From the IMG/VR virus record IMGVR_UViG_2671181050_000003: DNA of 30,282 nt; one strand, given 5' to 3'. The position numbers and the translations under genes were made by a program. The notes beneath the pieces were generated by a model, which did no database searches, was not told the origin of the DNA, and was given only the letters and a program-made list of their open reading frames with translations. Of the stretch, positions 16,048 to 30,282 are shown piece by piece. The stretch comes from a virus (Duplodnaviria > Heunggongvirae > Uroviricota > Caudoviricetes). Each line of letters starts with the position of its first letter. The first letter of the stretch is position 1.

Positions 16048-16054
16048 ATCCAAC

Positions 16055-16300
16055 AAGAAAGCCCCTCCGGAGAGGGGCTGGAGAGTAGCGCTATGTACCG
16101 TTCATGCATGGTGCAGGGTGCCTCCCGGTGAGTTCAGTATCAGCACCTGAACCCGCACCAGAAAGGATAAGGGGTGTGACCAAACACCTGTCGCTGATAT
16201 GCCCCTCCGCACAGGGGGATTCACCATGCCATATTTTTTTAACAAACTTCCCGCTGGCCAGACAATAATCGCCAGCCTGAATTGTGAGTAACGTGGCATT
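16055..16300 (-). repeat. Repeat unit A of an ORF-free tandem family, ending in a hairpin terminator (16061..16079)
   Basis: Shares conserved blocks with unit B (aaagcccctccggagaggggctg, catggtgc.agggtgcctcccggt, gggggattcacca, atttttaacaaa, gccagacaat, aattgtgag). Confidence 0.6.
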
Positions 16301-16324: not shown

Positions 16325-16534
16325 TAAAAAGGCCCGCCGGAGCGAGCCTGGAAGGATAGCGGTCATGTGATGCCGGTTTCCCGGTAACTCAGCATCGGTA
16401 TCTGAGTCAACGTTTTCTCTACTGGGTCATTTCCGATACGTTCCGCCTTCCGGCAGACTTTCATCACGTCAGAAAATATAGCACCCTGAGTAACAGGACA
16501 GTACTCAGAATTCAGGAAACTGTGACACATCCTG
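16325..16534 (-). repeat. Diverged middle unit of the same family, with its own hairpin terminator (16330..16349)
   Basis: Opens with aaaggcccgccggagcgagcctgg...tagcggtcatg, parallel to the start of units A and B. Confidence 0.4.
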
Positions 16535-16790
16535 CACAGAAAAGCCCCTCCGGAGAGGGGCTGAAGTATAGCCTAATTTCTGTCTGTCGCATGGTGCCAG
16601 GTGCCTCCCGGTAAATTCAGCCTGGCTACTGAATTTGCATGTTCGCTGGATCATACACTTTGCCAGATGCCCCGCCGCTGAGGGGGATTCACCACGCGAT
16701 GCAATTTTTAACAAATTCTCCGGCAGCCAGACAATCATCAAGCTGTGGAATTGTGAGGTATTTAAAAATTTCGCAGCCTCTTGCCACCCG
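16535..16790 (-). repeat. Repeat unit B, ending in a hairpin terminator (16544..16561 plus T-run)
   Basis: See unit A; perfect GCCCCTC/GAGGGGC stem followed by TTTTCTGTG on the minus strand. Confidence 0.6.
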
Positions 16791-19639: not shown

Positions 19640-20341
19640 TCAGAATTCAAATTGTCTTGCCCGCAGGCTTTTCAGCATTGGCATGGCCCGCTGGATAACG
19701 GAACTTGACATGTCGAGACGTGTTACCTCCCTTAGTAGCGCGTCTCTGTTCTTCGTCACCATGTAGATGGTCTCAAACGCAATGTCATACAGCTTGTTCG
19801 TGTATGAGGAGTTCAGCTCTTTCATTATGGGGTACAGCTGCTTGCTAAGGTCCTGGGCTTTTTCCATCCAGAGTTGCATGTAGCAAAGGAGGATGATTTC
19901 CTCGGCTGTGAATTGTGGCTGAATCTGCGGCTGCTGTTCGGTTGGTGCTGTTTTTCCCTGGCTGAAATAGCAGTCTTCCAGTTTTTCGAACACTTCCCAC
20001 GCCTGATCGGTTTCGAGCATTTTTGCGTGACGGGCTGCGCCGCGTTCTGTCCAGAGGATGAGGGAGCGAACATTGCGGGCGATTTTCACAGAGTAACTTT
20101 CTGTTACCTCGCGGCTAACAGACTCGCTTAAAGATAGTCTGTGCTTAAACTCACGTAGTTCATTCCCTTCCAACTTAAAGAAATGTTTTCCCTGTACAAA
20201 TCGCGCAGAGTTACGGGAAAAATTCATTTTTATATTGACTGTTTCAGTGCCATACAATTGCGCCAATAATTCTGTAGTAATTACGGGGATCTGGTTGTAG
20301 GCAATTGGGGAAAGAGTTTCAACGGAAATTTGAGTCGCCAT
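19640..20341 (-). CDS. Phage antirepressor / Roi-like DNA-binding protein (233 aa)
   Basis: N-terminal ORF6N/KilA-N-like segment (ELLAQLYGTE...NFSRNSARFVQGKHFFKLEG) plus a C-terminal helical domain; position between the replication and nin genes. Confidence 0.6.
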   Translation of the reverse strand: MATQISVETLSPIAYNQIPVITTELLAQLYGTETVNIKMNFSRNSARFVQGKHFFKLEGNELREFKHRLSLSESVSREVTESYSVKIARNVRSLILWTERGAARHAKMLETDQAWEVFEKLEDCYFSQGKTAPTEQQPQIQPQFTAEEIILLCYMQLWMEKAQDLSKQLYPIMKELNSSYTNKLYDIAFETIYMVTKNRDALLREVTRLDMSSSVIQRAMPMLKSLRARQFEF

Positions 20342-20609
20342 GACAACGCCCTCTGGTTGATGAATTTAACTATCACCACCGTCAGGTGCAAATCTTTGGG
20401 TGGTGAGACGTACAGGGTTTGCACTACCGGATCAACCAACCGGCGAGCCTTTCGGCTCCCCCATACGCCCCACCATAATTCAGATGTGCGTGTGCTTACG
20501 ACAACAAAAAACACGCTCGCGGCGTGTGTCTGTCGCGGTTGAATATCCGGGGTGCAAATCCCGACGCCAGATTTTGCTGGCGTGCGAAGAATATAATCCC
20601 GGATATGTG

Positions 20610-25989: not shown

Positions 25990-26067
25990 TACCTACAGGT
26001 AAACAAAAGTCAATACCCACAGGTTGTTTACCTTGCGGTAATCGCATCTATTATTTACCTATGGACA
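25990..26067. promoter_or_regulatory. Operator cluster: four TACC-N4-GGTA sites in the cro/repressor intergenic region (OR-like)
   Basis: tacctacaggta (25990), tacccacaggtt (26014), taccttgcggta (26029), tacctatggac (26056, overlapping the repressor ATG). Confidence 0.5.
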
Positions 26068-26480
26068 AATATGAATTTAGACGACAGCAACTCATCAAAA
26101 TTCGTGATGAGAAATGCGATGGTAAAGCGGTTAACGTGGCCAGAAAGATCGGGCGCGAGCCTTCTTATGTATCAAGAATGTTGTACCCAGAGGGGAAAAA
26201 GGGAAAAAAACGGATCGCTGATGATATGGTGGAGATTATCGAAGAGTCCTTTGGGTTACCCCGGGGATGGATGGATGGTATCGTTTCATCATCAACGAAC
26301 ACAGCCTCCAGTTATGAAACAAGGGTTCTAACGCCACGACAACGTATTTTTTTAGATCTCTTAGACGAACTGCCAGAAAGTGAAGCGGATAAATTATTAA
26401 AAACTCTTGAAGAGAAAAAACAGTATTACAATATGATCTACGAAGAAATCCGTAAAAAGAAAGCACAAAACACATCATAG
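26061..26480 (+). CDS. Prophage repressor (CI-like helix-turn-helix protein, 139 aa)
   Basis: Helix-turn-helix GKAVNVARKIGREPSYVSRM; divergent from the Cro-like gene; no ribosome-binding site before the ATG; operators on both sides. Confidence 0.65.
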   Translation: MDKYEFRRQQLIKIRDEKCDGKAVNVARKIGREPSYVSRMLYPEGKKGKKRIADDMVEIIEESFGLPRGWMDGIVSSSTNTASSYETRVLTPRQRIFLDLLDELPESEADKLLKTLEEKKQYYNMIYEEIRKKKAQNTS

Positions 26481-26522: not shown

Positions 26523-26559
26523 TACCCATGGGTATTTACTTTTTAAATACCTATGGGTA
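26523..26559. promoter_or_regulatory. Two palindromic operators downstream of the repressor gene (OL-like)
   Basis: TACCCATGGGTA (perfect 12-bp palindrome, 26523) and TACCTATGGGTA (26548), 25 bp apart. Confidence 0.45.
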
Positions 26560-26745: not shown

Positions 26746-26901
26746 ATGGATACTATCGATCTTGGCAACAGCGAATCTCTGGTATGTGGCGTGTTCCCCA
26801 ACCAGGACGGTACGTTCACCGCGATGACGTATACCAAAAGCAAAACGTTTAAAACCGAAAATGGTGCCCGTCGCTGGCTGGAAAGAAACTCAGGTGAGTG
26901 A
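26746..26901 (+). CDS. Small protein, YdfA-like (51 aa)
   Basis: Internal ATG of track ORF 26665..26901 preceded by GAGGT; size and position match the first small gene of the Qin dicB operon. Confidence 0.5.
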   Translation: MDTIDLGNSESLVCGVFPNQDGTFTAMTYTKSKTFKTENGARRWLERNSGE

Positions 26902-26902
26902 T

Positions 26903-27031
26903 ATGGATTTCGACACAATCATGGAAAAGGCTTACGAAGAATACTTCGAAGGTCTTGCCGAAGGCGAAGAAGCTCTCAGCTTCAGTGAATTTAAACAGGC
27001 GCTTTCCAGTTCGGCAAAATCTAACGGCTGA
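26903..27031 (+). CDS. Small acidic protein, YdfB-like (42 aa)
   Basis: Not in the track (under 60 aa). ATG at 26903 preceded by AGGTGAG and starting 1 nt after the previous stop; MDFDTIMEKAYEEYFEGLAEGEEALSFSEFKQALSSSAKSNG. Confidence 0.45.
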   Translation: MDFDTIMEKAYEEYFEGLAEGEEALSFSEFKQALSSSAKSNG

Positions 27032-27060: not shown

Positions 27061-27279
27061 ATGCAGAAACGAGAACCCGTCATCATCGCGCCAGACTATA
27101 CCGATGATGAACTTTATGAGTGGATGCGCCAGAAAATTAATGCAGTGCAGGATCTGAAATGGGCCAATGAAGCCAGGACTAAGCAGGCTGAAAATCTGTC
27201 CGCTCTGGAGCAGGATATCACCAGGCTGGAAAAAGCAGCGGCATTAAGCATTGCCAGAATGGTTACATACCCACGTTAA
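27061..27279 (+). CDS. Small protein, YdfC-like (72 aa)
   Basis: Size and position in the early-left operon. Confidence 0.5.
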   Translation: MQKREPVIIAPDYTDDELYEWMRQKINAVQDLKWANEARTKQAENLSALEQDITRLEKAAALSIARMVTYPR

Positions 27280-27301: not shown

Positions 27302-27703
27302 ATGGAATTTAAAGATTTACCAATGCAATTCCAGGAAATGGCAGCGAATATAGTTCGTTCCCAACTGGCGACTCTTGACCTGAGTACCGTAGAAAAAGAA
27401 ACCATCGATACTATATCCGGTAACGTGCGTCGTGCCTTTATAGGTCTGTATGAAGAGAAGCGCCTATTCGGCGGACAGAATTCGCCTGAAAACAAGAATC
27501 AAGCAAATGATGAGAAGCTGAAACACATTATCGCCTTACTTTTGGAAGACGCAAAACGTCTACAGCAACTGGAACCAAATGCAGGCACAGAGGCCCGCAT
27601 TTGGATTGCCATGAAATCACTCAAATGTGAAAGCAGTGATTATTTCAAAACAACAATTAAAACTACTCAACTTTCGGGAGAGCTACTGAAGAAATTGCCA
27701 TAA
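27302..27703 (+). CDS. Hypothetical protein (133 aa), helical
   Basis: GAGG ribosome-binding site; 3' end overlaps the convergent minus-strand gene by about 40 nt. Confidence 0.5.
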   Translation: MEFKDLPMQFQEMAANIVRSQLATLDLSTVEKETIDTISGNVRRAFIGLYEEKRLFGGQNSPENKNQANDEKLKHIIALLLEDAKRLQQLEPNAGTEARIWIAMKSLKCESSDYFKTTIKTTQLSGELLKKLP

Positions 27704-27941
27704 GAGCACGGTCTTTCTCTTGTTCTGCAAGATGAGCATTAATACCTGGTATGGTTTTTTCAAATTTATCTATCTGTTGAATAACAACTTCGCGGTATAC
27801 GTTTGTTTTTGTACCACCAAGCGCAGCCGTTAATGCAGAAAGCATATTTAGTATCATATCAGTGCGATATGAAAGAATCCTGATAGCTTCATCTTGTTCT
27901 TCAATAATAGATTGCAGGGCCTCAATTTGCTTTTTATCCAT
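27663..27941 (-). CDS. Hypothetical protein (92 aa), helical
   Basis: Internal ATG (MDKKQIEAL...) preceded by AGGAGGG; convergent with and overlapping the 133-aa gene. Confidence 0.5.
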   Translation of the reverse strand: MDKKQIEALQSIIEEQDEAIRILSYRTDMILNMLSALTAALGGTKTNVYREVVIQQIDKFEKTIPGINAHLAEQEKDRALMAISSVALPKVE

Positions 27942-28276
27942 TTCACCCTCCTGAGGGTTGGTAATTAAGGAGTTCTCCACGGGTCAGGTGGAGTGCGTGC
28001 GCCGGACACGGGTGAGCATCCGGCACTGACAGCTTACTGAAAGGATATGTCCCTGAAAAGTCAGGGCATAACGCGAAAGCGCACGGCGAAATTGGTCTCT
28101 CTGTACGGTGTCGTTAAATTTAGTTCGACCGTGCGCTTCCGGTTGTGGCACTCCGCGAAATGGCGCGGCGGTAAGTATGGCTGGGGTTTCCTCCATTGCT
28201 CCAGAAAATGCACCGGGTTGTCAGGTTGACCATACGCTTAAGTGACAACCCCGCTACAACGCCCTCTGTTATCAAT

Positions 28277-28334
28277 TTTCTGGTGACATTTGGCGGTATC
28301 AGTTTTACTCCGTGACTGCTCTGCCGCCCTTTTT
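28277..28334 (+). ncRNA. dicF: DicF-like small RNA
   Basis: tttctggtgacatttggcggtatcagttttactccgtgactgctctgccgcccttttt matches the E. coli DicF sequence as I recall it with about one substitution; followed by dicB-like and ydfD-like genes as in Qin. Confidence 0.65.
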
Positions 28335-28512
28335 AAAGTGAATTTTGTGATGCGGTGAATGCGGCTATGCGCACGCGGAACAGTTAAAGCAGTAAGGCGG
28401 TATTTTACGGGCGTAACGAGCATCAACTAACCCGGCGTTAATTGTTAACTGGTTAACGTCACCTAGAGGCACCAGGCACTGCATCACAAAATTCATTGTT
28501 GAGGACGCGATA

Positions 28513-28701
28513 ATGGAAACGTTATTACCAAACGTTAATACGTCTGAAGGTTGTTTTGATATTGGTGTTCTGCTCAGTAACCGGGAGTTTACTGAAGATG
28601 CCATTAATATGAGGAAATATGAGCCTTATCTGCTCAATGATAATTCCATACTTTCCCGAATTGCTCTTCTTGAACTTGGTATTTTCGGAGAACGTCAATG
28701 A
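28513..28701 (+). CDS. dicB: DicB-like cell-division inhibitor (62 aa)
   Basis: N-terminus METLLPNVNTSEGCFDIG closely matches my recollection of DicB; GAGGA ribosome-binding site; immediately downstream of DicF. Confidence 0.6.
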   Translation: METLLPNVNTSEGCFDIGVLLSNREFTEDAINMRKYEPYLLNDNSILSRIALLELGIFGERQ

Positions 28702-28886
28702 CTTCAGCATTTGCACTGATGATGACGGTTTTTCTTATAACGGGTGAATCACAGAATGTGATTACCGGAATTTATGCAAGTAAAGAATCCTGCCTCCAGG
28801 CAAGAGACGAGCAAAAAATTTCTGGTGAATGCCTCCCGCTAAAAAAAGTATCGCTGTACCTGAATAACGAAACACCGGCTGGATAA
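28698..28886 (+). CDS. YdfD-like small protein with N-terminal hydrophobic segment (62 aa)
   Basis: GGAGA ribosome-binding site; start overlaps the dicB-like stop; N-terminal MTSAFALMMTVFLITG. Confidence 0.5.
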   Translation: MTSAFALMMTVFLITGESQNVITGIYASKESCLQARDEQKISGECLPLKKVSLYLNNETPAG

Positions 28887-28981
28887 CCCTCCAGCCATAT
28901 TAACACCATACCAACGGATTAAAAATGCCAGCAATGGCAGGGATTCGTTCACCCTGAAATCTGTAATGAGGTTAAAACAAA

Positions 28982-30282
28982 ATGAGTAAGGTCTTTATTT
29001 GCGCTGCTATTCCTGATGAACAGGCCATAAAAGAAGATAGCGCTGTTGCGGTGGCCACTGCCATTGAAGCTGGTGATGAGCGTCGCGCACGCGCAAAATT
29101 TCATTGGCAATTTCTGGAGCAATTCCCTGCAGCTCAGGACTGCGCTTATAAATTTATTGTCTGTGAGGATAAACCCGGCATACCCCGCCCTGCCCTCGAT
29201 TCCTGGGATGCTGAATATATGCAGGAAAACCGCTGGGATGAGGCGTCTGCTTCCTTTGTCCCGGTTGAGACTGAATCAGATCCGATGAACGTCACTTTTG
29301 ACAAGCTGGCCCCTGAAGTACAGAACGCTGTCATGGTTAAGTTCGACACATGTGAAAACATCACCGTTGATATGGTTATTAGCGCACAGGAATTGTTGCA
29401 GGAAGACATGGCAACATTCGACGGACATATCGTTGAAGCGTTGATGAAAATGCCAGAAGTTAACGCCATGTATCCGGAGCTTAAGTTGCACGCCATTGGG
29501 TGGGTTAAGCATAAATGTAAGCCTGGTGCCAAATGGCCCGAAATTCAGGCAGAGATGCGCATCTGGAAAAAACGTCGCGAAGGTGAACGCAAGGAAACCG
29601 GAAAATACACGTCTGTTATTGATCTCGCCCGCGCCAGAACCAATCAACAGCACAGTGAAAATTCAACAGGAAAAATCAGCCCGGTCATTGCTGCCATTCA
29701 TCGCGAATACAAGCAGACATGGAAAACACTGGATGACGAACTGGCCTACGCTCTCTGGCCTGGTGATGTGGATGCCGGAAACATTGACGGCAGCATCCAT
29801 CGCTGGGCAAAAAATGAAGTTATCGACAACGACCGCGAAGACTGGAAGCGTATCTCGGCATCAATGCGCAAACAGCCTGATGCCCTTCGCTACGACCGCC
29901 AAACTATTTTTGGCCTTGTCCGTGAGCGTCCGATCGACATTCACAAAGATCCCATAGCACTGAACAAATATATCTGCGAATACCTGACTACAAAGGGCGT
30001 GTTTGAAGATGAAGGAACAAATCAGAGCGCAACTGATACTCTCTCGTCGCCAGTACCAGAAACTGATGCAGTGGAAACGGCAATTCCGGACAACGAAAAA
30101 ACCGAATGCAAAGTGGAAGTCGAACCATCTGTAGAACGTGAGGGGCCGTTCTACTTCCTCTTCACCGACAAGGATGGCGAAAAATACGGTCGCGCAAACA
30201 AACTTTCTGGTCTGGATAAGGCACTGGCTGCTGGCGCCACTGAAATCACAAAAGAAGAATATTTTGCCCGAAAAAATGGCAC
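28982..30282 (+). CDS. Large early-left protein, N-terminal 433 codons; 3' end beyond the window (YdfE/RecE-position gene, product uncertain)
   Basis: Open frame from the ATG at 28982 (GAGGT ribosome-binding site) to the window edge with no stop; absent from the track because it is unterminated. Confidence 0.55.
   Translation, partial: MSKVFICAAIPDEQAIKEDSAVAVATAIEAGDERRARAKFHWQFLEQFPAAQDCAYKFIVCEDKPGIPRPALDSWDAEYMQENRWDEASASFVPVETESDPMNVTFDKLAPEVQNAVMVKFDTCENITVDMVISAQELLQEDMATFDGHIVEALMKMPEVNAMYPELKLHAIGWVKHKCKPGAKWPEIQAEMRIWKKRREGERKETGKYTSVIDLARARTNQQHSENSTGKISPVIAAIHREYKQTWKTLDDELAYALWPGDVDAGNIDGSIHRWAKNEVIDNDREDWKRISASMRKQPDALRYDRQTIFGLVRERPIDIHKDPIALNKYICEYLTTKGVFEDEGTNQSATDTLSSPVPETDAVETAIPDNEKTECKVEVEPSVEREGPFYFLFTDKDGEKYGRANKLSGLDKALAAGATEITKEEYFARKNG

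Follow-up and report, generated by a model that had tools for sequence, protein, structure and literature searches.

DicF, DicB and YdfD are a well-studied case of prophage genes that act on cell division, sugar uptake and phage entry in the host, and dicBF has been found in many prophages (PMC5069750). Does the 30,282-nt stretch of tailed-phage DNA analysed here (the window) carry an intact operon of this kind, as a preliminary description of it had proposed, and what are the non-coding parts of that operon built of? Our analysis confirms the dicF-dicB-ydfD operon, which is already known: the window holds an ordinary copy in a lambdoid prophage of E. coli. We are confident that the region is the early-left (PL-type) operon of a complete-looking prophage carrying the known dicBF module. 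Its order is ydfA-ydfB-ydfC, two extra genes, a leader, dicF, a spacer, dicB, ydfD and an exonuclease gene.

The DicF small RNA

We used a covariance-model search to identify DicF in the window. This revealed a match to Rfam RF00039 on the plus strand at 28278-28329, with a score of 77.0 bits (E = 1.4e-15) for a family whose gathering score is 48 bits. The match spans the complete model (positions 1-52 of 52) with a posterior probability of 1.0 at every aligned position. The whole feature runs from 28277 to 28334 and comprises a 53-nt RNA (28277-28329), an intrinsic terminator hairpin within it (28292-28328) of -15.9 kcal/mol, the same as in K-12, and a UUUUU run at 28330-28334. These are exactly the coordinates that the preliminary description had given to DicF, and the Rfam score on which it had made the identification depend lies well above threshold. 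The alignment with K-12 dicF that it had also suggested gives a single mismatch (52 of 53 bases alike). At nucleotide 12 the window has A, the Rfam consensus base, where K-12 has G. The change falls outside the ftsZ-pairing core, and nucleotides 13-53 are the same as in K-12.

The RNA thus has the attributes by which family members are recognised: a score above gathering over the full model, a 3' Rho-independent terminator with its U-run, the sequence pairing with the ftsZ ribosome-binding region (by identity to K-12), and a position in the ydfABC-dicF-dicB order that matches K-12, from whose polycistronic transcript it would be processed. We dropped duplex energy as a test of the interaction with ftsZ, since the whole-length duplex (-36.6 kcal/mol) separates poorly from those formed by shuffled DicF (-31.1 +/- 4.2 kcal/mol, z about -1.3). 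The argument for pairing therefore rests on identity to the K-12 RNA, for which pairing with ftsZ was proven with compensatory mutations and for which xylR and pykA are further pairing targets (PMC5069750). Species of 53 nt and 72 nt have been described (PMC9438474). It could be objected, as a general caution, that a covariance-model hit is no test of expression and that the match is a chance or decayed sequence encoding no functional sRNA. We regard the probability of this as negligible: every model position is aligned with full confidence at a score far above gathering, the sequence is almost that of an experimentally characterised RNA, its terminator is unbroken, and it stands at the right place in the operon. 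At the level of sequence, the Rfam score and the K-12 alignment effectively refute the objection.

Genes downstream of DicF

The 62-aa gene that follows (28513-28701, plus strand) is dicB. Along its entire length of about 62 aa it exceeds the curated cut-offs of both Pfam (PF05358, 125.5 bits for a cut-off of 27, residues 1-62 on profile positions 1-62) and NCBIfam (NF049927, 114.2 bits for a cut-off of 100), and dicB is annotated in identical E. coli genomes. The protein is 63% identical to K-12 DicB. Counted by hand on the alignment, residues 1-35 are about 80% identical and residues 36-62 about 41%. The product had earlier been credited with a DicB-like N-terminus; the homology stands, and its limitation to the N-terminus was an understatement, because the gene is a full-length member of the family.

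The next gene (28698-28886, plus strand, 62 aa) had been described as small, hydrophobic and ydfD-like, which agrees with our searches. It belongs to DUF1482 (Pfam PF07358, 54 bits for a cut-off of 25) and matches phrog_1092 with 114.8 bits. Its product is 44% identical to K-12 YdfD, with which the hydrophobic N-terminus (MxSAFxLxxTVFLxxGE) and both cysteines align. As in K-12, its start codon overlaps the dicB stop codon (ATGA). K-12 DicB binds MinC and inhibits the Z ring via ZipA, and it confers about 100-fold resistance to lambda that depends on DicB and ManYZ (PMC6832061). Lysis through inhibition of IspG was shown only for K-12 YdfD (PMC8835842). Since the 27 C-terminal residues of DicB are only 41% identical to K-12 and YdfD only 44%, binding of MinC and IspG by the proteins of the window is extrapolated from K-12.

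Further downstream, the 5' part of an exonuclease gene (28982-30282, plus strand; phrog_2082 exonuclease, 1095 bits over 433 aa) stays open for at least 433 codons and runs off the end of the window. Identical genomes have an exonuclease annotated at the same place, and the K-12 counterpart is the pseudogene ydfE.

Operon context and an inserted cassette

Upstream of the leader lie homologues of ydfA (26746-26901; DUF1391, Pfam PF07151, 94.5 bits), ydfB (26903-27031, 42 aa; phrog_2061) and ydfC (27061-27279, 72 aa; phrog_1744), all on the plus strand. The DNA of the three genes is about 97% identical to K-12; ydfB is collinear with its nearly identical K-12 counterpart, and ydfC is likewise nearly identical. 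Because of this upstream part, the operon can be called a Qin-type dicBF operon. The claim that it is intact holds as well, with the leader collinear and dicF, dicB and ydfD in the K-12 order.

Between ydfC and the leader, the window has a two-gene cassette (27302-27941) that is absent from K-12 Qin. The first gene encodes 133 aa (27302-27703, plus strand; phrog_1363, 153.7 bits) and the second, convergent with it, 92 aa (27663-27941, minus strand; phrog_18692, 206.3 bits), with a 41-bp overlap of their 3' ends. Neither matched anything in Pfam, NCBIfam or the PADLOC scan for defence systems; both fall in PHROG families of unknown function. The 92-aa gene has a strong ribosome-binding site (AGGAGG) before its ATG, and only 49 of 5426 complete E. 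coli genomes have it beside the leader. Lying convergent on the minus strand within the operon, it could hinder transcription from reaching dicF. The suggestion that its promoter lies in the leader found no support: a crude scan of the minus strand of 27942-28276 gave no sigma-70-like site, and no convincing -35/-10 pair was seen there by eye.

A regulator of another immunity type

We then considered what controls the operon. A 139-aa regulator is encoded at 26061-26480 on the plus strand (phrog_5736 'transcriptional regulator', 233.6 bits) and is the candidate repressor. It is not DicA. BLASTP found a resemblance to DicA only in the C-terminal 46 residues (89-134, 33% identity), the NCBIfam DicA profile (NF007257) gave 24.5 bits over residues 86-136 only for a cut-off of 101, and the DNA-binding half is unrelated. 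The protein is therefore a different type of repressor, heteroimmune to DicA. The divergent genes beside it are YdaS/YdaT-like, as in Rac.

The motif TACC-N4-GGTA has four exact copies in the 30-kb window, where 0.14 would be expected by chance, and all of them flank the regulator gene. An OR-like cluster (25990-26040) lies between the divergent YdaS-like gene and the regulator gene, with TACCTACAGGTA at 25990, TACCCACAGGTT at 26014 (one mismatch) and TACCTTGCGGTA at 26029. On the other side of the gene, an OL-like pair (26523-26559) consists of TACCCATGGGTA at 26523 and TACCTATGGGTA at 26548. The proposal that the operon lies downstream of the prophage's repressor is thus borne out by a regulator gene with operators on both sides. 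Homology to K-12 begins only at about 26715, so the OL-like control region is specific to the immunity type. We presume that the operon promoter lies at the OL-like pair, at which the scan found no sigma-70 consensus promoter above its threshold. The window also encodes a P22-type antirepressor (19640-20341, with ORF6N and P22_AR_C domains), whose gene adjoins C4 and IsrK RNAs.

Occurrence of the module

Close relatives of the region are prophages adjacent to ompW: E. coli CE10 and about 48 other genomes match positions 27600-29000 at 99.8-99.9% identity. The CE10 element neighbours ompW, includes an integrase and an excisionase, and has dicB and DUF1482 annotated. The PPompW phages of EHEC O26/O111-type strains match 27942-29000 at 90% identity and, unlike the window, are without the 92-aa/133-aa cassette. 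Elsewhere the window is a mosaic, and its best long match extends over only 76% of 25 kb. In one related prophage the same slot is filled by kil, which encodes a different FtsZ inhibitor. A scan for the DicF core at the species level returned only eight loci, from Escherichia, Shigella and MAG contigs, one of which (L005) was rejected as a chance match, and so contributed little diversity.

The comparison with K-12 Qin brings out what is shared and what differs. Gene order and content are the same, with the exonuclease gene 3' and a regulator directly upstream, and the resemblance extends to ydfABC (about 97% identity), the leader (about 90%), DicF and the dicB/ydfD start-stop overlap. In contrast, the window has a regulator and operators of another immunity type (not DicA/DicC), the cassette between ydfC and the leader, and divergent alleles of ydfD and of the C-terminal half of dicB. 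Its exonuclease gene is open where K-12 has a pseudogene, and its prophage, unlike the cryptic Qin, looks complete.

These comparisons bear on whether the operon could be a silent relic, with intact sequences that are never meaningfully expressed in this prophage. In K-12 dicBp is tightly repressed and the inducing conditions were long unknown (PMC10448788, PMC6832061); here, in addition, a convergent gene interrupts the operon. Against this, no reading frame or RNA element is broken, many unrelated isolates carry the region at 99.9% identity, and the prophages of the relatives keep integrase, excisionase, lysis and structural genes. Moreover, DicF builds up in K-12 during stationary phase, and spontaneous derepression occurs in a subpopulation of cells (PMC10448788). 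We consider a silent relic improbable.

The leader and its probable processing sites

The leader had been described as an ORF-poor, GC-rich stretch (27942-28276) with several hairpins. This is accurate: GC content over 27950-28249 is 54.7%, compared with roughly 37-47% in the flanks, and the predicted fold is more stable than that of shuffled sequence (z = -2.8). One hairpin, the palindrome ccctga-aaag-tcaggg, had been placed at 28053-28072 and is corrected here to 28051-28066. The leader is collinear with the 340-nt ydfC-dicF spacer of K-12, at about 90% identity. Its open reading frames are not conserved, because K-12 differs by indels of 3 and 4 nt; these indels, together with the variable length of the hairpin H2 described below, led us to reject a small leader-encoded protein.

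RNase III and RNase E sites have been mapped experimentally in the K-12 ydfC-dicF spacer (PMC10448788), and homology to this mapped sequence supports the earlier suggestion that the leader holds DicF processing sites. A long imperfect stem with a variable loop (28073-28141, plus strand; 28073-28089 paired with 28125-28141) is present in the minimum free energy folds of both the window and K-12. Its arms are conserved, its loop varies, and one C-G pair is changed to U-G. Processing of DicF depends on RNase III in K-12 (PMC10448788), and counting 190 nt back from the DicF 3' end leads to about 28140; this stem is probably the RNase III substrate that yields the 5' end of the published 190-nt DicF species. 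An AU-rich single-stranded linker (28261-28276, plus strand), the same as in K-12, ends at the DicF 5' end. It is probably the region of RNase E cleavage, an enzyme that the 53-nt species needs in K-12 (PMC10448788).

A conserved four-way junction

Between stem and linker, the minimum free energy fold contains a four-way junction of about 118 nt (28142-28260, plus strand), the 5' domain of the 190-nt species. It is closed by P1 (28142-28149 with 28253-28260) and holds H1 (28153-28168), H2 with an outer part (28170-28172 with 28212-28214) and an inner part (28181-28186 with 28199-28204), and H3 (28215-28223 with 28243-28251). The element occurs once in the window, has no Rfam match at E<=10, and is also found in P1, Ayreon, Stx2c phages and Salmonella F1055. 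Among 70 distinct sequences, most of them close relatives whose relatedness inflates the shuffle control, 95.1% of cells are paired, compared with 37-61% when the partners are slid, and eight pairs change on both sides. The compensatory changes fall in P1, outer H2 and H3, and owing to its G-U pairs the fold is specific to the sense strand. Length variation degrades the column-wise count for inner H2 (88.9% paired), so we folded every hairpin separately; H2 is maintained by at least six stem sequence types. The H3 loop is invariant by construction of the search pattern. Pairing of the H2 loop with the strand 3' of H2, as a pseudoknot, was rejected, as the complementarity did not exceed that of shuffled loops in nine types (P = 0.11-1.0).

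In every inspected locus a terminator hairpin follows within about 10-35 nt of the junction, with a sequence that differs by lineage, and the setting is always a repressor-controlled early leader. Canonical DicF lies 3' of the junction in only 85 of 127 loci. The 'dicF-like region' of P1 (NC_005856, 68791-68892), which lies in the leader of the ban operon, is a case in point. It shares H1, H2 and H3 with about 79% core identity, has a hairpin and U-run after the junction, and lies just downstream of a repressor-controlled early promoter. It differs from the window in its closing stem and flanks, in having no canonical DicF (no Rfam match at E<=0.01), and in being followed by tRNA genes and ban rather than dicB. 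The put element of HK022 is also a structured RNA in a lambdoid early operon, upstream of terminators that need read-through, but it is of about 70 nt, has two stem-loops and occurs in both early operons (PMC9378689), whereas the window has one copy of a four-way junction of no sequence resemblance. Given this misfit of architecture and the single copy, we rejected membership of the put-like antiterminators and keep put as a functional analogy only.

Why, then, is the leader conserved? It may be a passive processing substrate, kept by recent ancestry and by the needs of RNase III and RNase E rather than by any function of the junction. The RNase III stem and the RNase E linker flank the junction exactly (PMC10448788), the failed pseudoknot and the built-in invariance of the H3 loop fit such an account, and so does the kinship of most of the 70 sequences with its effect on the control. 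It is harder to reconcile with the fact that P1, Ayreon/Stx2c-type phages and Salmonella F1055 retain the junction although their RNase III stem, flanks and downstream hairpin differ, or with the many H2 stem sequences that all keep a hairpin, the compensatory changes, and the G-U pairs that restrict the fold to one strand. We give a passive leader slightly less than an even chance. A tentative proposal, rather doubtful at present, is that the junction has an independent function and represents a mobile RNA module of phages that has yet to be described. Such a module could serve as a scaffold that governs how the sRNA is processed and how stable it is. It could also act in cis, adjusting how often transcription passes the sRNA terminator into genes of the dicB type, or be the constant body shared by a family of long sRNAs whose targeting ends are exchangeable.

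The spacer between DicF and dicB

The spacer (28337-28497, plus strand) is structured as well (z = -2.65); its STnc100-like core is closed by a helix of 21 bp (28337-28357 paired with 28477-28497). The helix is probably the RNase III site giving the 3' end of the 72-nt DicF species. The match to STnc100 (PasD; RF02076) is weak, at 24 bits (E = 0.004) for a gathering score of 47. Alignment folding gives the spacer and true STnc100 copies a common consensus structure, in which 12 of 23 pairs are compensatory, and the closing helix (GGUGAAU...GCACC) and inner hairpins are as in the two true STnc100 copies of the window. As the architecture is shared and the score below gathering, we speak of resemblance to STnc100, not of membership. 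The spacer also differs in location: it sits in the operon between dicF and dicB, not near the lysis/esterase region.

A model of operon function and its selective value

The proposed mechanism combines these elements with what is published on K-12, namely DicF processing, DicA and Rem (PMC10448788) and the actions of DicB through MinC and ZipA and on ManYZ (PMC6832061). In the lysogen, the 139-aa regulator would bind the statistically supported TACC-N4-GGTA copies at 26523 and 26548 and keep the operon off. Lifting of repression would allow transcription through the leader; the P22-type antirepressor whose gene follows the C4 and IsrK RNAs could plausibly be the trigger, on the model of Rem in Qin. 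Some transcripts would end at DicF's own terminator. RNase III would cut the stem at 28073-28141 to give the RNA of roughly 190 nt, and RNase E the AU-rich linker to give 53-nt DicF. These cleavages have been shown in K-12, and we infer them here because of the high sequence identity (about 90%) and the identical predicted fold. With Hfq, DicF would pair with the ribosome-binding region of ftsZ, and also with manX, xylR and pykA, and block translation as it does in K-12, with which it shares the pairing core.

In transcripts that read through the terminator, RNase III would cleave the 21-bp helix of the spacer, and DicB and the YdfD homologue would be made from these transcripts. Going by family membership, DicB would bind MinC, reach ZipA at midcell and dismantle the Z ring, and would close the ManYZ entry route of lambda-like phages. 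On the same basis, the YdfD homologue may act as YdfD does in K-12, where it inhibits IspG and lyses dividing cells.

This double action of DicB raises the question of what the module is kept for. It might be retained mainly for superinfection exclusion and effects on host metabolism, filamentation being a side effect of overexpression. DicB blocks ManYZ against DNA injection by lambda-like phages, with the strong lambda resistance mentioned above (PMC6832061), DicF represses manX, and the toxicity of DicF is unexplained by repression of ftsZ (PMC5069750). The module also lies in the immunity-proximal early operon, a typical place for exclusion genes. The kil gene in the same slot of a related prophage can be read both ways: it has been counted in favour of exclusion, and as another FtsZ inhibitor it argues for selection on division control itself. 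Nothing in the sequence tells the two roles apart. We regard retention mainly for exclusion as a serious minority view. It is compatible with the main explanation, as MinC is required for either DicB phenotype (PMC6832061).

The window thus adds a further copy, 99.9% identical to public E. coli DNA with annotated dicB, to a well-characterised system. Here the module belongs to a prophage that appears complete and has a different immunity type; its operators and antirepressor could offer a means of studying natural induction. Sequenced phages also carry the module, which updates a 2016 observation of its absence from phage databases. The non-coding parts of the operon are built of structured RNA modules common to unrelated phages, and the less-charted part is the conserved folded RNA just upstream of DicF, which is common to many phages. 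Understanding these RNA modules could explain how DicF-type sRNAs are produced and how transcription passes the DicF terminator to reach dicB.

DicF, dicB and ydfD

The Rfam scan of the whole window returned a full-length match to DicF (RF00039) at 28278-28329 on the plus strand, scoring 77.0 bits (gathering score, 48). Alignment to the Qin locus of E. coli K-12 (NC_000913.3) places the 53-nt RNA at 28277-28329 (+), followed by a U-run to 28334. The DicF homolog of the preliminary description is thus borne out, with a single base changed: nucleotide 12 is A, like the Rfam consensus, where K-12 has G. The core that pairs with ftsZ is identical in sequence to that of K-12, whose DicF pairs with the ribosome-binding region of ftsZ, an interaction proven by compensatory mutations (PMC5069750).

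The gene described as dicB-like (28513-28701, +) encodes a full-length DicB (Pfam PF05358, 125.5 bits; NCBIfam NF049927, 114.2 bits for a cut-off of 100). Identity to K-12 DicB is 63% overall, approximately 80% in residues 1-35 and 41% in residues 36-62 (hand count on the alignment). The small hydrophobic ydfD-like ORF (28698-28886, +) matches DUF1482 with 54 bits and has exactly the same overlap with the dicB stop codon as K-12 ydfD. Its product is 44% identical to K-12 YdfD, and the hydrophobic N-terminus and both cysteines align. A mosaic boundary lies within dicB: many phage matches to the region stop at 28617, around codon 35, where the identity to K-12 DicB also drops, so the C-terminal half of DicB and ydfD behave as an exchangeable allele. 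DicB works via MinC and ZipA, and it also bars the entry of phages that depend on ManYZ (PMC6832061). In K-12, YdfD inhibits IspG and causes lysis of dividing cells (PMC8835842). We infer the same functions for the divergent alleles of the window.

Upstream, the homologs of ydfA (26746-26901), ydfB (26903-27031) and ydfC (27061-27279), all on the plus strand, show about 97% identity to K-12. The ORF-poor leader of 340 bp that precedes DicF had been called GC-rich; its GC content is 54.7%, above that of its flanks, and it is collinear with the ydfC-dicF spacer of K-12, likewise of 340 nt. The palindromic hairpin reported in it is present, but at 28051-28066 rather than 28053-28072, the sole coordinate slip in an otherwise accurate account of the locus.

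Distribution and relatives

The region 27600-29000 is found at 99.8-99.9% identity in at least 25 complete E. coli genomes among the matches listed, and some part of it is present in 4727 of the 5426 complete E. coli genomes. The counterpart in strain CE10 belongs to a lambdoid prophage adjoining ompW, with integrase, excisionase and exonuclease genes, where dicB and DUF1482 are already annotated. Many E. coli prophages are known to carry the dicBF module (PMC5069750). Hence, the finding is real and already known: the locus is a known system within a known kind of prophage. These results confirm the dicBF observation and support its reading as an intact Qin-type division-inhibition operon, with the exception of a proposed minus-strand promoter (see the inserted cassette).

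DicF and DicB are also found in at least 59 deposited phage genomes, Stx-converting phages included (for example OV696610 Tritos, LC567818 Stx2_14040 and ON470612); in 2016, phage databases were reported to be devoid of both (PMC5069750). Two odd outliers, the Aeromonas jumbo phage MT713136 (87% identity over 246 nt) and an Actinobacillus record, may reflect contamination or recent transfer. In the closest long relative, a prophage of E. coli DETEC-S792, a Rac-type kil gene (30906-31127 of that locus), encoding another FtsZ inhibitor, fills the slot upstream of the exonuclease gene and replaces dicF-dicB-ydfD; the immunity region also differs.

Candidate repressor, operator-like sites and likely induction switch

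The regulator gene (26061-26480, +) encodes a 139-aa phage transcriptional regulator (phrog_5736). We rejected its identification as DicA, since it scores 24.5 bits with the NCBIfam DicA model for a cut-off of 101; the likeness to DicA is confined to the C-terminal 46 residues. As in Rac, the divergent genes encode YdaS- and YdaT-like proteins. The motif TACC-N4-GGTA has four exact copies in the 30-kb window, where 0.14 are expected by chance, and every one of them flanks the regulator gene. Two of them, with a third site carrying one mismatch, lie in the divergent promoter region (25990-26040), and the other two between the regulator gene and ydfA (26523-26559). This arrangement resembles the OR/OL layout of lambdoid immunity regions, and the claim that the operon lies downstream of its repressor is therefore well founded. 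The sequence pattern suggests that the regulator binds these operator-like sites, which define an immunity specificity other than that of Qin DicA/DicC.

A P22-type antirepressor gene with ORF6N and P22_AR_C domains (19640-20341, -) has a C4 antisense RNA (20396-20480, -) and an IsrK RNA (20506-20583, -) directly upstream. Since the antirepressor Rem is what induces dicBF in Qin (PMC10448788), the P22-type antirepressor is the obvious candidate for the same role. This region is a likely induction switch for the prophage, hence for the dicBF operon.

Transcript processing

The processing scheme is taken from work on K-12 and carried over by homology. Transcripts from the repressor-controlled promoter would either end at the terminator of DicF or read through it. 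RNase III gives a 190-nt species and RNase E the 53-nt DicF (PMC10448788); RNase III also yields a 72-nt form from read-through transcripts (PMC9438474). The window has structures matching these steps, as judged from predicted folds. The predicted folds of the window and of K-12 share a long imperfect stem (28073-28089 paired with 28125-28141) with conserved arms and a variable loop; its base lies some 190 nt before the 3' end of DicF. The DicF 5' end is directly preceded by an AU-rich linker (28261-28276). The suggestion that the leader holds processing sites is supported by its homology to the K-12 sequence in which such sites were mapped (PMC10448788). Further downstream, a predicted 21-bp helix (28337-28357 paired with 28477-28497) closes off the DicF-dicB spacer; its 5' arm is where the 3' end of the 72-nt form would be expected.

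In this spacer (28337-28497, +), the helix is wrapped around a core similar to STnc100, a prophage sRNA, with a sub-threshold Rfam score (24 bits, E = 0.004). A consensus structure is common to the spacer and to the two true STnc100 copies of the window, with 12 of 23 pairs compensatory. Parts of the spacer are also found in D6, P7, Rac-SA53 and Klebsiella phages. The two full-length STnc100 genes lie in tandem on the minus strand (16049-16258 and 16534-16727; 130 and 139 bits), and comparison with a related prophage puts them between the late-gene regulator region and the SASA esterase/lysis genes.

An inserted two-gene cassette

Two convergent genes, absent from Qin in K-12, occupy the exact junction of the ydfC stop codon with the leader. 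They encode proteins of 133 aa (27302-27703, +) and 92 aa (27663-27941, -), their 3' ends overlap by 41 bp, and PHROG places both in families of unknown function; neither has a match in Pfam, NCBIfam or PADLOC, a library of defence systems. The cassette adjoins the leader in only 49 of the 5426 complete E. coli genomes. The leader had been proposed to hold the promoter of the 92-aa gene, and we found no promoter-like site for it there.

A four-way junction upstream of DicF

A search of phage genomes with the leader revealed that its sub-segments travel separately. One of them, an element of about 118 nt directly 5' of DicF (28142-28260, +), is predicted to fold into a four-way junction with a closing stem (P1) and three hairpins (H1, H2 and H3). 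It also occurs in phage P1 (1501-1610 of the extracted locus), where it carries the annotation "dicF-like region" and lies in the leader of the ban operon, close behind the promoter under C1 control, as well as in Ayreon, Stx2c-converting phages and Salmonella phage F1055; the other extracted copies lie at 1501-1623 (two loci) and 1501-1620. None of these named phages has a DicF by Rfam at E <= 0.01. A motif derived from the element matches at least 120 viral contigs, and the element itself has no Rfam 15 match even at E <= 10.

Among 70 distinct sequences, 95.1% of the cells are in standard pairs, versus 37-61% with the partners slid by 1-3 columns. The close relatedness of the sequences inflates the shuffle control. 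Eight pairs changed on both sides. The H2 hairpin persists across at least six different stem sequences, whereas the invariance of the H3 loop follows from how the search pattern was built. The fold is specific to the sense strand owing to its G-U pairs. A proposed pseudoknot failed its control. The obvious functional analogy, the put RNA of HK022 (PMC9378689), differs in architecture.

Canonical DicF follows the element in 85 of 127 loci and another sequence in the remaining 42. Each of the 12 non-DicF variants inspected (20 of these 42 loci) seems to fold into a hairpin with a terminal U-run. In two IMG/VR contigs (L022 and L067), the variant present lacks both the RNase III stem and the 5' half of stem P1; these look like deletions between the two CGCGAAA repeats of the leader (window positions 28072-28078 and 28154-28160). 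A modest lead comes from the non-coding portions of the operon, which are modular and structured, and above all from the four-way junction.
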